Below, in pieces: positions 1,981 through 43,209 of a stretch of 64,000 nt of DNA; position 1 is the first letter of the stretch, and each line of letters opens with the position of its first letter. A program made the translations under genes and the position numbers. The stretch comes from Parcubacteria group bacterium. Its GTDB lineage: Bacteria; Patescibacteriota; Minisyncoccia; Moranbacterales; UBA2206. Where the stretch lies: contig JBAZUU010000001.1 in the NCBI GenBank assembly GCA_041661275.1, positions 229,057 to 293,056 on the forward strand, read 5' to 3'. The notes beneath the pieces were generated by a model that had not been told where the DNA came from, made no database searches, and saw only the letters and a list, made by a program, of their open reading frames with translations.

Positions 1981-4221
1981 ATGTCTAAAATCCTAGAAAA
2001 ACTAAATCCTTCCCAGCGCGAGGCGGTGGAGACGATTGATGGGCCGGTGCTTATCATTGCCGGAGCGGGTTCAGGGAAAACGCGGGCGCTCACTCATCGG
2101 GTGGCGTATTTGATTTGTGACAAAAATGTCAGTCCAAGGCGAATTTTGGCGGTGACATTCACAAACAAAGCTGCTCAAGAGATGAAGGAACGGATTGCAG
2201 AATTATTAGGTACTGATGACAACGATGGGAGTTCGACTCCCATTATGGGAGTCGAACTCCCAAGGAAAGAGATGCCGTTGGTGGGCACTTTTCATTCAAT
2301 CTGTGTGAGAATTTTGCGGCGGGAAATTGAGAAAGTGGGATATAAAAAATCATTTTCAATTCTCGATGCGCAGGATCAATTGGCACTTATGAAAAGGACG
2401 ATGAAGGAAATGCAAATTGATACCGATCAATTTAAACCACAAGCCATTTTGGGAGCAATTTCCAAAGCTAAAAACGAATTGATAGATGAAGCGGTTTTTG
2501 AAGAAGGCATCGGCGGATATTGGGAAGACGCAGTGTCGAAAGTTTATAAAACATATCAAAAAAAACTAAAAGACCAAAACGCTTTGGATTTTGACGATCT
2601 CATTATGCAAACAGTCAAAATTTTCAAGACATACCCAGAAATTTTGGCCAAATATCAGGAATTTTGGCGGTACATCATGGTGGATGAATATCAGGATACT
2701 AATCACGCGCAATATACTTTGGTAAAGCTGTTGTCTCAAAAGTATAAAAACATATGGGTTTGCGGTGATGACTGGCAAGGAATTTATATGTTTAGAGGCG
2801 CAGACATTCAAAACATACTCGACTTTGAAAAAGACTATTCAGACGCCAAAGTGATAAAACTAGAACAAAATTATCGTTCTACACAAAACATTCTGGACGC
2901 GGCTTACGGTGTTATTTCTAAAAACATTAATCGAAAAGATAAAAAAATATGGACCGACCAAGCGGGCGGGCATCTCATTACTTCATATGAAGCGGAAGAT
3001 GAAAGGGATGAGTCTGGTTTTATCGCCGAAGAAATCCGGAGAATAAGAAAAAAAGAAAACTATTCATTTTCCGATTTTGTGATTTTATATAGAACCAATG
3101 CTCAATCACGAACCATTGAAGAAGCGATGCTCAAAAATTCCCTGCCCTATCGAATTATTGGGGGCTTAAAATTCTATCAAAGAAAAGAAATAAAAGACGT
3201 CATTGCCTACCTTCGGCTTATTGAAAATTTTTATGACGAAGTTTCTTTGGAGCGCGTTATAAATGTTCCCAAAAAAGATATCGGCGAGATAACCTTGAAT
3301 AAATGGATAAAATTAGCCAGAGAAAATAATGTTAATCCGATAGGGTTTGGAGCTGGTAATTTAAAGATAGAGCCCTCTCCTGTCGCGAAGACGCGACATC
3401 CTCTCCCAGAGGGAGAGGAGGAAAGTAATGTGTTTTTAATTCCTTCCTCTAAAAAAGATAAAATTGCCAAGTTTTGTGAGTTTATAAAGAGGATGAATGA
3501 TGTAAAAAATAATATTCCACTGACTGATTTTATCCAAAAAGTCTTCATTGAATCCGGCTATGAAAAATTTTTGCTCGATGGAACGGAAGAAGGTGAAATG
3601 AGAAATGAGAACGTGCGCGAACTTTTGACGGTGGCTAAAAAATATGATGAATACGAAAGCGATGAAGGTTTGAAATTATTTTTGGAAGAAGTGGCACTTG
3701 TTTCTGATACGGACAATATCGATCAAAATAAAGACGCGGTGCATCTGATGACTTTGCACTCAGCCAAAGGACTGGAATTTAAGGTAGTTTTCATTGCCGG
3801 CCTCGAAGAGGGACTTCTGCCACATTCTCGAAGCATGATAGACGGTCGGGAGATGGAAGAGGAAAGAAGGTTGATGTACGTAGGAATAACTCGCGCCAAA
3901 GTCAAAGTATATTTATTATTTACCAGAGAAAGAAACATCTTTGGCTCAACGCAAGTCAATGCTCCGTCAAGATTTCTTGACGATATTCCGGAACACCTGC
4001 TCGAAGACTCAAATCCCAAATCTCAAATCCCAAATTCCAAACAAATCACAAATCCAAAATCACAAATTCAAAATTCTTTTCGAGATGGTGACAAAGTCAG
4101 TCATGAAATTTTTGGTGAGGGAAGAATAATCGCGACGCAAGGAGATATAATAACTGTGGCGTTTAAAAAAGCAGGATTGAAAAAACTAGCAGCGTCGATA
4201 GCGCCGTTAAGAAAAATTTAG
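1981..4221 (+). CDS. uvrD: UvrD/PcrA/Rep-family ATP-dependent DNA helicase
   Basis: Walker A (AGAGSGKTRALTHR) and the helicase motifs (VDEYQDTN, YRST, LMTLHSAKGLEF, VGITRAK) are present. The ORF also contains three repeat-derived in-frame insertions (see findings). Confidence 0.9.
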   Translation: MSKILEKLNPSQREAVETIDGPVLIIAGAGSGKTRALTHRVAYLICDKNVSPRRILAVTFTNKAAQEMKERIAELLGTDDNDGSSTPIMGVELPRKEMPLVGTFHSICVRILRREIEKVGYKKSFSILDAQDQLALMKRTMKEMQIDTDQFKPQAILGAISKAKNELIDEAVFEEGIGGYWEDAVSKVYKTYQKKLKDQNALDFDDLIMQTVKIFKTYPEILAKYQEFWRYIMVDEYQDTNHAQYTLVKLLSQKYKNIWVCGDDWQGIYMFRGADIQNILDFEKDYSDAKVIKLEQNYRSTQNILDAAYGVISKNINRKDKKIWTDQAGGHLITSYEAEDERDESGFIAEEIRRIRKKENYSFSDFVILYRTNAQSRTIEEAMLKNSLPYRIIGGLKFYQRKEIKDVIAYLRLIENFYDEVSLERVINVPKKDIGEITLNKWIKLARENNVNPIGFGAGNLKIEPSPVAKTRHPLPEGEEESNVFLIPSSKKDKIAKFCEFIKRMNDVKNNIPLTDFIQKVFIESGYEKFLLDGTEEGEMRNENVRELLTVAKKYDEYESDEGLKLFLEEVALVSDTDNIDQNKDAVHLMTLHSAKGLEFKVVFIAGLEEGLLPHSRSMIDGREMEEERRLMYVGITRAKVKVYLLFTRERNIFGSTQVNAPSRFLDDIPEHLLEDSNPKSQIPNSKQITNPKSQIQNSFRDGDKVSHEIFGEGRIIATQGDIITVAFKKAGLKKLAASIAPLRKI
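3372..3422 (+). repeat. CCCTCTCC/GGGAGAGGAGGA structured repeat, copy 1, in frame inside uvrD
   Basis: CCCTCTCCTGTC-GCGAAGACGC-GACATCCTCTCCCAGAGGGAGAGGAGGA. It encodes ...EPSPVAKTRHPLPEGEEE... within the helicase. Confidence 0.8.
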
Positions 4222-17263: not shown

Positions 17264-20200
17264 ATGGAAAAAGATATCAAAAATACTAGCGTTATTCAAT
17301 CGCGGGAAATTACCGAAGAAATTTCGCAATCCTATTTGGATTATGCTATGAGCGTCATTGTCGCTCGCGCTTTGCCTGATGTTCGCGATGGCTTGAAGCC
17401 GGTTCACCGAAGAATCCTCTATTCCATGTGGAACACTGGTCTTCGCGCCAATGCTAAATTCCGAAAATCAGCCACAGTGGTCGGAGAAGTCTTGGGAAAA
17501 TATCACCCGCATGGCGACGTGGCGGTCTATGATTCTATGGTGAGAATGGCCCAGGATTTTTCTCTACGCTATCCATTGGTGCGCGGTCAGGGAAACTTCG
17601 GTTGTTTTACAAAAGACACTAGGGTCAAACTGGCTGATGGGCGGAATTTAAGCTTCGAAGATCTTATAAAAGAAGATAAACAGGGCAAAAAAAATTACAC
17701 CTATACGGTTAATTCTTTGGGTTTAATTTCAATAGCTCAAATAAAAAAACCTCGCCTTACCATTGAAAATGCAGAAGTCATTAGAGTTGTGCTGGACAAT
17801 GGGCAGAAAATTAAATGTACTCCTAATCATTTGTTTATGCTCAAAAACGGCCAATATGAAGAAGCGCAAAATCTGAAAAAAGAGGATTCTCTAATGCCGT
17901 TATATGAAAAGTTATCGGAAAAAACTGATAGGCTAAATCGTGAAGGATATACTCTAGTATACCAGCCCAAAAAAGACGAATGGGTTCCCGTGCACCACCT
18001 GGCTGATAATTTCAATTTGACTGTTGGAAAATACATAAAAAGTGTCGGTAGGGTAAGGCATCATTCGGATTTCAATAAACTTAATAACAGTCCTGAAAAT
18101 ATTGTCAGAATGAATTGGAAAGAGCATTGGAGCGTTCATTATGAAAACGCTTCCTTGTTGCATAAAAGCGCGAATTATCGCCAAAAAATTAAAGAAGGTC
18201 GGGATAAATATTGGTCAGACTCTCAAGTTCGAGAGCAATATGCAAAGCGTTTATCTGAAAGGAATGTGATAAATTGGGAAAATCCGGAATATCGGGAAAA
18301 GATGCGTCTTTTTTTGAGCGAGATGAATAAGCAGTATATGAAAGATCATCCGGAAAAACGCCAGGAAATTAGTGAGCGCGCTACAAAAACTTTGAAAAGG
18401 CTTTGGAAAAATCCCGAGTATCGCGCGATAATGCATGAAAGAATAATCAAGGGAAACAAAAATCACAAAACCAATAAAACCGGCAGGTTAAAGTTCCTCA
18501 ATGTTTGTAAGGAAATTATTGCAAAAAATCTTGAGATAAATGAAAAAAATTATTCTCAATTCAGAAAAAAAGTTTATGCCTATGGAGCGGCAACGCTATG
18601 GGAGACAGGATTGAATAAATATTTTCAAAATAGTCCTGACCTGATTCGACAGGAAATAAGCAAAAATCACAGAATCGTTAGGATCGAAAAGATAAAAGAA
18701 AAAGAAGATGTGTTTGACCTTACGATTGATAATTCTCACAACTTTTGTTTGGGTGCCGGAGTATTTGTTCATAACTCGATGGATGGTGATAGCGCGGCAG
18801 CCTATCGTTATACAGAAGCCAAGCTTTCTGTCATTGCTGAAGAAATGCTTATTGACATCGAAAAGAATACTGTCGATTTTGTGCCGAACTTTGACGGACA
18901 GCACAAAGAACCAACTGTTCTTCCCGCCGGACTCCCTCAGCTTCTTCTCAACGGTTCTATGGGAATCGCTGTCGGGATGGCGACAAACATCCCTCCGCAT
19001 AATTTAGGCGAACTTATCGACGGCATCAATTGTCTTATTGAAAATCCGGACGCGGAAATTTCTGATCTCGCGGAATTTGTGAAAGGTCCGGACTTCCCTA
19101 CTGGTGGTATAATTTACAACAAAAAAGACATCCTGGAAGCCTACAAGACCGGACGGGGAAAAATTCTCACGCGAGCCAAGGCGGAAATCGTGGAAACAAA
19201 AGCCGGTGCGTTTCAAATCATTGTGAGCGAAATGACTTATGCCACTAACAAAGCGACAATGATTGAGCGAATGGCTGATCTGGTGCATGAAGGAAAAATT
19301 GTCGGTATTAGGGACATTCGAGATGAATCAGACAAGGAAGGAGTGCGGCTGGTCATTGAGCTCAAAAAAGACGCTTATCCGCAAAAAGTTTTGAATAAAC
19401 TATATTCCCTCACCGATCTCCAAAAAAACTTTGGAGTGAATATGTTGGCGCTGGTCGGTGGCATTGAACCGCAGATCTTGAACCTGAAAGATATTTTGGA
19501 AGAATATATCGAACACCGAAAAATTGTCATCACTCGCCGGACTAAATATGATCTGGAAAAAGCACGAGACCGGGCGCATATTTTAGAGGGCTTGAAAATC
19601 GCTCTTGATCATATCGACGCGGTGATAGAAACAATCAAAAAATCAGAAACCAAGGAAATTGCTCATGTCAATTTGATGAAAAAATTCAAATTATCCGACA
19701 GACAGGCTACAGCAATTCTCGAAATGAGATTGCAAACTTTGGCGGGGCTAGAGCAAAAGAAAATCGAAGACGAGCTAGCCGAAAAACTGAAACTGATTGC
19801 GGAGCTCGAAGCTATTCTAAAGAGTGAAAAGAAAATTTTAGGAATAGTCAAAGATGAGTTGGCGCGCGTCAAAGAAAAATATGGCGATGAGAGAAAAACC
19901 AAGATCGTGAAAGGCGGCATCACCGAATTCAAGCAAGAAGACCTTGTGCCGAACGATGAAGCGATAATCACTATTTCCAAAGAAGGATATATTAAAAGAA
20001 TGGATCCGGCCGTATACAAAGTTCAGCGTCGGGGCGGAAAAGGAGTGATTGGCGCCACCACCAAAGAAGGCGATGAAATTTCTGAAATGCTGGGCGTTAT
20101 GGCGCACGACAATCTTCTCTTTTTCACCAACACCGGAAAAGTTTTCCAGACGAAAGCTTATGAAATTCCCGCTTCCACCCGGATCGCCAAAGGCCAGTCC

Positions 20201-20884
20201 ATTGTCAATTTCCTTTCACTTTCCAGTGAAGAAAAAATAACCGCGTTGGTGGCGTCTGGAAAAGATGACGCCTATAAATATATGTTTATGGCCACGGAAA
20301 ACGGCACAGTGAAAAAAACATCGATCGAAGAATTTGAAAATGTCAGGCGTTCCGGACTCATCGCGATAAAGCTGGAAAAAGGTGACGCGCTTTCCTGGGC
20401 GGAAGCGACATCGGGATCTGACGAGGTAGTCATCACTACGCAAAAAGGACAAGCCATCCGCTTTCGCGAATCCGATGTCCGTCCGATGGGTCGTGCTGCA
20501 GCGGGAGTGCGTGGCATCAAACTAAAAACCGAAGACAAAGTGGTCGGGATGGATGTCGTTTTTAAAGGACAAAAAGGCAATCAGCTTTTGGTCATCGGAG
20601 AAAATGGATATGGAAAAAGATCAGATCTCAAATCATACAAAGTCCAGAAGCGCGGTGGGTCAGGAATCAAGACTGCTTCCATCACAGCCAAGACTGGAAA
20701 ACTGATCGGAGCGCAAGTAGTCAATCTTGATGATATTGAACAAGATCTTATTATGACAAGTGAGAAAGGACAGATCATCCGCATTGAGCTAAAAACCGTC
20801 TCCGTCCTCGGCCGCGCGACGCAAGGTGTCAGGGTTATGCGTCCACAACCCGGCGACAAAGTTTCGGCGATAACGGTTTTGTAA
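17264..20884 (+). CDS. gyrA: DNA gyrase subunit A, interrupted by an intein
   Basis: [23 protein letters not shown] and [12 protein letters not shown], then the intein, then [17 protein letters not shown] and the GyrA beta-pinwheel repeats. The extein totals about 815 aa. Confidence 0.95.
17603..18775 (+). mobile_element. GyrA intein (about 391 aa) at the canonical site between GNFG and SMDGD
   Basis: It begins with Cys ([13 protein letters not shown]...), ends ...[12 protein letters not shown] and is followed by Ser. The central domain carries tandem NPEYR(E/A) repeats. I see no LAGLIDADG motif. Confidence 0.85.
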
Positions 20885-27302: not shown

Positions 27303-27323
27303 CCCAAGTGGTGGGGGATAAAG

Positions 27324-27378
27324 TTAGAGCGCTCCGTTCACATCGGAGAGGTCTCTGGTTCGAGTCCAGATACACCCA
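27324..27378 (+). ncRNA. tRNA-Val(CAC)-like 3' fragment (D-stem 3' strand through acceptor 3' strand) lacking a recognisable 5' half
   Basis: TTAGAGCG-CTCCG-TTCACAT-CGGAG-AGGTC-TCTGG-TTCGAGT-CCAGA-TACACCC-A. Relative to the upstream tRNA-Val it shows compensatory changes in the anticodon and T stems. Confidence 0.5.
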
Positions 27379-42846: not shown

Positions 42847-43152
42847 GCCAGGTTAGCTCAGCGGTAGAGCGAAGGACTGAATTTCGGTCCGTCCGGCAGT
42901 AATGCCGGAATGAAAATTGGGTGAATTCGAGGAAACCTAAGTTGCCGATGAGGCAAAATGGCAATCTCGAGCCAAGTCTTGATGGGCATAGTTTTCAAGA
43001 AAGGTGTAGAGACTAGCGAGTGAGTCCCAACAATAATCTCGCATTAGCGCCCAATATCCTGATGAAGGATAATGAAATAGTCCAATCCTTGGGGAAACTC
43101 AAGAAGGAAAAGGAAAATCCTTGCGTGCCCAGTTCGACTCTGGGACCTGGCA
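42847..43152 (+). tRNA. tRNA-Phe(GAA) split by a group I intron in the anticodon loop
   Basis: Exon 1 is GCCAGGT-TA-GCTCAGCGGTAGAGC-G-AAGGA-CT (42847-42878). Exon 2 is GAAAA-TCCTT-GCGTG-CCCAG-TTCGACT-CTGGG-ACCTGGC-A (43113-43152). Spliced loop is CTGAAAA. Confidence 0.75.
42879..43112 (+). ncRNA. group I intron (234 nt), no ORF
   Basis: The internal guide GGTCC pairs with exon 1 GGACU through a U:G at the splice site, and the intron ends in G. Its core resembles the cyanobacterial tRNA-Leu intron as I recall it (GGAAACCTAA; CTCGAGCCAAGTC; GGTGTAGAGACTAGCG; TAGTCCAATCC). Confidence 0.75.
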
Positions 43153-43209
43153 CTTACAAAGTTAAAAGTTCAAAATTAAAAGTTAAAAGTTTGGCTAACT
43201 TTTAACTAT

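Follow-up and report, generated by a model that had tools for sequence, protein, structure and literature searches.

Inteins that carry a homing endonuclease of the HNH type inside their splicing (Hint) domain were reportedly first described by Dalgaard et al. in 1997, and we take the 435-amino-acid (aa) GyrB intein of Synechocystis (Ssp GyrB) to be their prototype. We describe here an element of this kind from a stretch of 64,000 nucleotides (hereafter the window, in whose numbering all coordinates are given) belonging to a Patescibacteria, or candidate phyla radiation (CPR), genome (GenBank assembly GCA_041661275.1, contig JBAZUU010000001.1, positions 229,057 to 293,056 of the forward strand). 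Its gyrA gene, that of a member of Candidatus Moraniibacteriota, is interrupted at 17603-18775 by what is very probably a full-length class-1 intein with an HNH homing-endonuclease module.

The resemblance to the described HNH-type inteins is one of overall plan: an HNH module, helical repeats and, C-terminal to these, a helical subdomain, all nested within a Hint domain. The GyrB inteins recovered in our searches (432-435 aa) align with the GyrA intein from end to end and share both its GVFVHN terminus and a DSLMPLY...HHxDFNKxNN core; the GyrA intein differs from them in its host site (GNFG/S, the slash here and below marking a junction between extein and intein), in its smaller number of repeats (391 vs. 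about 435 aa) and in its CPR host. The sequence of the Ssp GyrB mini-intein closely resembles these GyrB members, and Ssp GyrB itself may belong to the present family. Both the Ssp GyrB intein and its endonuclease-deleted mini form splice experimentally (PMC3620165).

A second close comparison is with I-HmuI, the intron-encoded endonuclease of Bacillus phage SPO1 (structure 1U3E), which has a homologous catalytic core and follows the same logic, with the HNH core succeeded by helical elements and then by a C-terminal DNA-binding domain. I-HmuI, however, is free-standing, and it lacks the array of 21-aa repeats found here. It begins with a NUMOD4 sheet and ends with a NUMOD-like domain, and no counterpart of either could be detected in the GyrA intein. 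The last metal ligand also differs, being His in the GyrA intein (H-N-H) where I-HmuI aligns as ...QKIN. The mycobacterial GyrA inteins (Mxe, Mle), finally, share with the present one the host protein, membership in class 1 and the interruption of the catalytic-tyrosine region of GyrA. These sit directly after the catalytic tyrosine (..AMRY/C...HN/TEA), 12 residues downstream of the present insertion, and carry a LAGLIDADG domain or none, so that GNFG/S would be a different GyrA site. The Mxe GyrA chain was not among the PDB sequence matches of the intein, and a search of the literature found nothing on HNH GyrB inteins, on NUMOD2 or on inteins in CPR gyrA. HNH inteins are nonetheless a known, if minority, class, and NCBI already has proteins under the name "intein-containing DNA gyrase subunit A/B"; in this sense the element itself is ordinary; its only component without an entry in the curated libraries is a helical repeat of 21-22 aa, treated below.

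The gyrA intein and its empty site in relatives

The gyrA open reading frame (17264-20884, stop codon included; all gyrA features are on the + strand) encodes a 1206-aa precursor, in which Pfam recognizes DNA_topoisoIV (2.2e-149) and six DNA_gyraseA_C blades, and which is predicted to yield an 815-aa GyrA after splicing. An exact-sequence look-up of the precursor returned no record. The N-extein (17264-17602, 113 aa) ends in ...RGQGNFG; the insert follows it in frame, its translation being exactly 391 aa (CFTKDT...GAGVFVHN); and the C-extein occupies 18776-20884, with the Ser+1 codon at 18776-18778. The intein is inserted between Gly113 and Ser, in GNFG/SMDGD, 12 residues ahead of the putative catalytic tyrosine, the second Tyr of YRYTE (codon 18809-18811), which we assign by presumed homology to Tyr122 of E. 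coli GyrA. Translation agrees in every respect with the extent and the end residues (Cys at the start, His-Asn at the end, then Ser+1) given in a preliminary description of this DNA, made from the sequence with no database searches.

That description had also recognized Hint blocks at the two ends, and the intein profiles bear this out. The insert matches Pfam Intein_splicing with E=4.9e-23 (82 bits vs. a cutoff of 35.8), TIGR01445 intein_Nterm with 8.3e-11 (over aa 1-79), TIGR01443 intein_Cterm with 9.6e-4 (over aa 369-391) and the NCBIfam model of intein-containing RtcB with 2.7e-41. The N-terminal Hint half comprises aa 1-97 (17603-17893), with block A at Cys1 (17603-17605) and block B at T73-P-N-H76 (17819-17830), and the C-terminal half aa 355-391 (18665-18775), ending in VFVHN (blocks F and G); all of the class-1 residues are there, namely Cys1, T73-x-x-H76 of block B, His390-Asn391 and Ser+1. 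The AlphaFold2 (AF2) model of the whole intein, built from 58 homologues, has a mean predicted local distance difference test score (pLDDT) of 91.2, and at E<=0.001 Foldseek matches it to 36 solved intein/Hint chains, among them those of Pho CDC21-1, Mtu RecA, NrdJ-1, Npu DnaE and Ssp DnaB, with the N-terminal half among the parts so aligned. Since the catalytic residues are intact and the chemistry of inteins is established, we infer that the insert splices: the two Hint halves would excise it after translation through an acyl shift at Cys1, aided by His76 of block B, transfer of the N-extein onto Ser+1, cyclization of Asn391 with the aid of His390, and ligation of the exteins to a normal 815-aa GyrA.

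When the spliced 815-aa GyrA was run against GTDB, each species being represented by a single genome, 80 gyrA loci were obtained, 56-90% identical in GyrA and mostly annotated as Candidatus Moraniibacteriota or Moranbacteria, or as other Patescibacteria, an outcome that places the source among the CPR bacteria. Every one of the 80 reads through the site as an uninterrupted ...GQGNFGSMDGD..., and tblastn with the intein found no match in any of them. The consensus DNA of these empty alleles is GGTCAAGGAAACTTTGGT/TCAATGGATGGCGAC; one example (locus L002, at about position 3310) has ...GGCCAGGGAAATTTCGGC/TCGATGGACGGTGAC.... The closest homologues of the intein, 50-69% identical to it, are found at this site too, in GyrAs with exteins 64-86% identical to those of the present GyrA, a level below the typical identity of its intein-free relatives. 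The intein is most simply explained as horizontally acquired. The empty sites in relatives mean that the insert is a sporadic mobile element and not a domain of GyrA; the preliminary description had itself called for this comparison. An intact reading frame running through the insert is what a genuine, lineage-specific GyrA domain would also display, and yet such a domain would hardly carry Hint splicing blocks, be missing from all 80 related genes and have homologues inserted in hosts as unrelated as GyrB, a T4-like portal protein, RtcB and a dCTP deaminase-like protein; we regard this explanation as extremely unlikely.

The intein has a G+C content of 35.8%, whereas the exteins stand at 45.5% and the whole 64-kb window at 40.4%. 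Along the gene it falls to 0.33-0.41 across the intein, in the interval 17564-18764, vs. 0.42-0.53 in most of the remaining gyrA. The drop fits a foreign origin, or else the composition of a module rich in Lys and Asn. Neither the intein nor its HNH core or its repeat was found a second time when the window was scanned for them.

The HNH nuclease core

Nested in the Hint domain is a module of 257 aa in three parts (an HNH core, a set of repeats and a four-helix subdomain) that would constitute the homing endonuclease. The preliminary description had found neither LAGLIDADG nor HNH signatures here and had suggested a degenerate or novel domain. On LAGLIDADG it was right, no such family being found in Pfam scans at E<=1 to 10; on HNH it is contradicted by several kinds of evidence, which together indicate that the middle of the intein begins with a predicted nuclease core of the I-HmuI type, of beta-beta-alpha-metal architecture (aa 98-187, 17894-18163).

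Within this core the stretch 150-179 contains the motif HH...N.P.N...H...H, formed by H153 and H154 (codons 18059-18064), N162 (18086-18088), N166 (18098-18100), H175 (18125-18127) and H179 (18137-18139). In an alignment of 44 diverse family members, 24-52% identical to the present copy, the columns of M98, P99, Y116, H153, H154, H175 and H179 are invariant, and those of H131, N162, P164 and N166 are conserved in at least 90%; the present copy keeps all of these, which disagrees with the earlier idea of a degenerate domain. (Counted from the start of the module, H56, H57, H78 and H82 are the invariant residues of the motif, and N65, P67 and N69 the near-invariant ones; over the 44-58 members compared, every motif column is either invariant or conserved to at least 90%.) The present copy is matched by PHROG 7545, "HNH endonuclease", with 2.9e-7. 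The family profile, run against the whole PDB, has a single match, I-HmuI (1U3E, E=6.3e-6), and hhalign aligns the two at a probability of 95.2% (E=2.4e-8) over residues 37-95 of I-HmuI, its Pfam HNH_3 region. When only the central module was used as query, HMMER, run exhaustively, gave 540 cluster representatives; of the 46 that were scanned against Pfam, 44 contain Intein_splicing and 12 contain HNH_3 at E<=1e-5, with 1.1e-15 as the best value.

The predicted structures point the same way. In the whole-intein AF2 model the core has the beta-beta-alpha topology, with strands at 151-154 and 167-170 followed by a helix at 172-187, and the separate model of the endonuclease module reaches a pLDDT of 94.3. 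Foldseek against the predicted viral structures of BFVD brings up dozens of phage proteins labelled "HNH endonuclease", "HNH homing endonuclease" or "I-HmuI", at a probability of about 1.0 and E of 5e-5 to 1e-1, aligned over some 80-90 residues at roughly 3 A. Against the PDB the module model has no match at E<=0.001, so that an HNH module like this one is not apparent in any solved intein.

There remains the reading closest to the preliminary one, in which the middle would be a novel or degenerate DNA-binding or endonuclease domain unrelated to HNH and built from NUMOD-type repeats. It can appeal to repeats that are real and basic and to the lack of any Pfam domain above threshold in the middle of the intein, and it has to contend with a core homologous to that of I-HmuI and with repeats that fail to match the NUMOD families; we consider it very unlikely.

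Tandem helical repeats and the C-terminal subdomain

The core is followed by an array of tandem helical repeats (aa 188-288, 18164-18466). A hidden Markov model (HMM) of the repeat, iterated over the family, has a 20-aa consensus and a dominant period of 21-22 aa, and finds four significant units in the present intein, spaced by 21, 22 and 21 aa, at aa 206-225 (18218-18277), 227-245 (18281-18337), 249-268 (18347-18406) and 270-288 (18410-18466), along with a fifth, weaker unit at aa 188-205 (18164-18217). The two NPEYR repeats of the preliminary description are both real, as units of this longer array. In both AF2 models each unit is one long helix, broken at a W-x-N-P junction, with very short linkers between the helices. 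Lys and Arg together number 26 in the array, and Asp and Glu 15, for a net charge of +11. Hydrophobic positions recur about every four residues in the consensus, from which, reading by eye rather than by computation, we take the helices to be amphipathic. Each repeat position has its own conserved signature within the GyrA-site inteins, which fits specialized contacts with a fixed target, without proving them, and the number of copies varies among the members of the family.

After the repeats come four helices (292-307, 314-324, 333-341 and 345-353 in the AF2 model) that form a basic subdomain, of net charge +7, at the endonuclease module's C-terminal end (aa 289-354, 18467-18664). A family profile of this subdomain has no match in the PDB, and hhalign finds none between it and the C-terminal domain of I-HmuI; it is a putative DNA-binding part of the module. 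In the inteins of the dCTP-deaminase-like hosts (P0103, P0113) the same position holds AAAEKLGVSKQTLYRRF, a segment that, judged by eye, looks like a helix-turn-helix.

Among described motifs the repeat is most readily compared with NUMOD3. Both are short tandem helical motifs which, in homing endonucleases, stand after the nuclease core and before a helical domain at the C terminus. At 21-22 aa the GyrA-intein units are longer than NUMOD3, and a conserved Trp closes each of them. The NUMOD3 consensus loosely resembles the repeat in having a His/Asn and Pro/Ser helix cap, basic residues and a conserved Ser. We treat this likeness as an analogy and not as demonstrated membership. NUMOD3 is known as a minor-groove alpha-helix motif of I-TevI, I-BmoI and I-HmuI (PMC2853131).

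Outside the inteins of this type the repeat recurs in other combinations. It is found in a protein with a Zn-ribbon, about eight repeats and then a C-terminal HNH_3 (P0190); in one with a MucR-like finger, about ten repeats and then a Phage_endo_I-like domain (P0204); in one with many repeats followed by REase_MTES_1575 and Mom (P0257); and in a free-standing 301-aa protein (P0241) that has no Hint domain but shares the HNH core and the C-terminal subdomain of the intein and contains six repeats. Arrays of two to more than ten units are combined with at least four nuclease domains, namely intein HNH, C-terminal HNH_3, endonuclease-I-like and MTES_1575-like. This reuse with other nucleases makes a modular, nuclease-associated and, by analogy, NUMOD-like role in DNA binding plausible for the repeats, and to that extent the "NUMOD-type" of the preliminary description caught their behavior, if not their family. 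One further candidate carrier, P0141 (3688 aa, 15 stretches), was rejected as a false positive, being a fiber-like repeat protein.

The repeat has no dedicated model in Pfam or NCBIfam, and repeat-rich relatives are scored as GerD, STI1-DP, NHase_alpha and DUF3306 by Pfam and as GerD by NCBIfam; the labels GerD, STI1-DP and NHase_alpha on such arrays are likely mis-annotations. Papers inspected after a literature search for the motif strings DPEYR, NPEYR and DPEFR appear unrelated. The present repeat may or may not coincide with the NUMOD2 motif, reportedly described by Sitbon and Pietrokovski in 2003. We would suggest, quite tentatively and with more doubt than conviction, that the W-x-[D/N]-P-E-[Y/F]-R helices are a modular DNA-binding repeat, associated with nucleases and not yet catalogued, which would amount to one more NUMOD. 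If that were true, each unit would contact a few base pairs, and the number of copies and the sequences of the units would set the length and specificity of the target.

The repeats might instead have no part in reading sequence and serve to hold the C-terminal subdomain at a set distance from the HNH site, as a stiff spacer or ruler, or else form a scaffold packed against the Hint domain. One long helix per unit with hardly any linker would suit such a rod, as would the differing copy numbers and the lack of a match to any known DNA-binding fold. The strongly basic character of the array and the separate signatures kept at each of its positions among the GyrA-site inteins do not sit well with it, and its reuse with four nuclease types fits a DNA-binding module better than a scaffold peculiar to inteins. 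On balance we think a spacer improbable, and continue to regard the array as a putative DNA-binding element.

Several observations weigh against the overall interpretation of the insert as an intein with an HNH homing endonuclease. The present sequence taken singly fails to reach the Pfam HNH_3 cutoff of 24.8 bits (12.8 bits, E=0.098), so that its assignment to HNH rests on family-level profiles and predicted structure. How the helices are placed with respect to one another is uncertain in the models, whose predicted template modelling (pTM) scores are 0.55-0.68. Pfam NUMOD3, NUMOD1 and NUMOD4 give no match at E<=10, either in the present repeat region or in a relative with ten units, and the repeat profile, run against the PDB, finds designed helical proteins only, at E>0.08, and no natural protein, neither I-TevI nor I-HmuI being among its matches. 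DNA binding by the repeats and the C-terminal subdomain is thus proposed for two segments that match neither a solved structure nor a curated DNA-binding family. For the GyrA members of the family, splicing, DNA binding and cleavage are all predictions.

Proposed homing, decay and the wider family

A homologue search of 5.8 billion proteins gave 445 matches, and the full-length relatives among them fall into three groups by host site, in GyrA, in GyrB and in a dCTP-deaminase-like protein. At least 19 further full-length GyrA inteins of the family occupy the GNFG/S site. The hosts in the GyrA group are Patescibacteria and Omnitrophica and, among DPANN archaea, Woesearchaeota, Nanoarchaeota and Micrarchaeota. 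The members of the GyrB group (432-435 aa, as above) are inserted at EGDSAGG/S, are 31-37% identical to the GyrA intein and include cyanobacterial ones (P0091, P0105). The hosts of the 46 representatives scanned against Pfam are GyrA (11), GyrB (9) and a T4-like portal protein (8), with RtcB, radical SAM and others also represented. The GyrA site itself holds degraded forms as well, one with no HNH motif (P0020), one lacking the late repeats (P0014) and three mini derivatives in which little or nothing of the module is left (P0052, P0055, P0111). Empty sites, full-length elements and decayed elements together make up the classical picture of a homing cycle.

In the homing step as we envisage it, the repeat helices and the C-terminal subdomain would lay the protein along an intein-less gyrA around GGTCARGGAAAYTTYGGT/TCRATGGAYGGYGA, the HNH site would nick or cut nearby, and repair would copy the intein gene from the intein-carrying allele. 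That target encodes a motif conserved in bacterial and archaeal GyrA alike, which would account for the presence of the same intein in both CPR and DPANN. Every family-invariant residue of the nuclease is kept in the present copy, and for this reason we judge it, from its sequence, to be probably still active or only recently idle.

A different outcome would be that the intein is real and its endonuclease module an inactive relic, which no longer homes and persists since precise loss from an essential gene is rare. Decay is evidently common in the family, as the deletion and mini derivatives at this very site attest; no second copy more than 70% identical was found, so recent spread is not demonstrated; and the present copy, as noted, stays under the Pfam HNH_3 cutoff. 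A relic, however, would hardly be expected to have kept the full 391-aa architecture without frameshifts or deletions and with all eleven of the invariant and near-invariant HNH residues (M98, P99, Y116, H131, H153, H154, N162, P164, N166, H175 and H179) intact, and empty target sites are abundant among its relatives. We hold a relic to be unlikely, though a serious enough competitor to be kept in mind, and favor an endonuclease that works or did so until recently.

Other members of the family show how these inteins can accumulate. A metagenomic GyrA fragment of 527 aa (P0059) holds two inteins in its residues 1-265, one of the LAGLIDADG type, which ends in ...GMIAHN/, and some 35 residues downstream of it one of the HNH type at GNWG/C. 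In these lineages GyrA thus offers two intein sites or more, and with the mycobacterial position the protein has several. A number of proteins of 1500-2400 aa (P0144, P0151, P0154, P0171, P0174, P0207, P0211, P0250 and similar ones) contain two to four copies each of the HNH-intein module, and if these are the eight representatives with a T4-like portal (gp20), some phage portal genes may carry several inteins of the family. The module is also present in a cultured phage, in the "hypothetical protein" gp22 of Bacillus phage SP-15 (L081; NC_031245.1, 12315-13934), where tblastn finds an HNH-plus-helical module 24.5% identical over 94% of its length (E=3e-9); the BFVD entry of this protein is named "Hint domain-containing protein" (Foldseek E=7.6e-10). 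SP-15 gp22 is an unannotated HNH intein.

Elsewhere in the window, a tRNA-Phe(GAA) gene (42847-43153, +) has its anticodon loop interrupted by a group I intron of 234 nt, so that the 64 kb hold two self-splicing elements. The intron is recognized by Rfam Intron_gpI (87.4 bits, 42869-43104), and ARAGORN finds the split tRNA only with introns allowed; judged by its length, it is too short to hold an open reading frame the size of a homing endonuclease. Directly after a tRNA-Val(CAC) gene, 27314-27378 (+) gives a weak tRNA-like Rfam match (34.9 bits vs. a gathering score of 29) that is not reported by ARAGORN and may be a degenerate or unusual tRNA.

The models, at pLDDT values of 91-94, give a first anatomy of an HNH module of this kind, and a proper family model for the repeat would improve annotation. 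The gyrA intein adds a further example of the dense colonization of CPR and DPANN genomes by self-splicing elements, and its family, extending across CPR bacteria, DPANN archaea, cyanobacteria and the portal genes of phages, could serve well for tracing how genes have moved from one of these groups to another.

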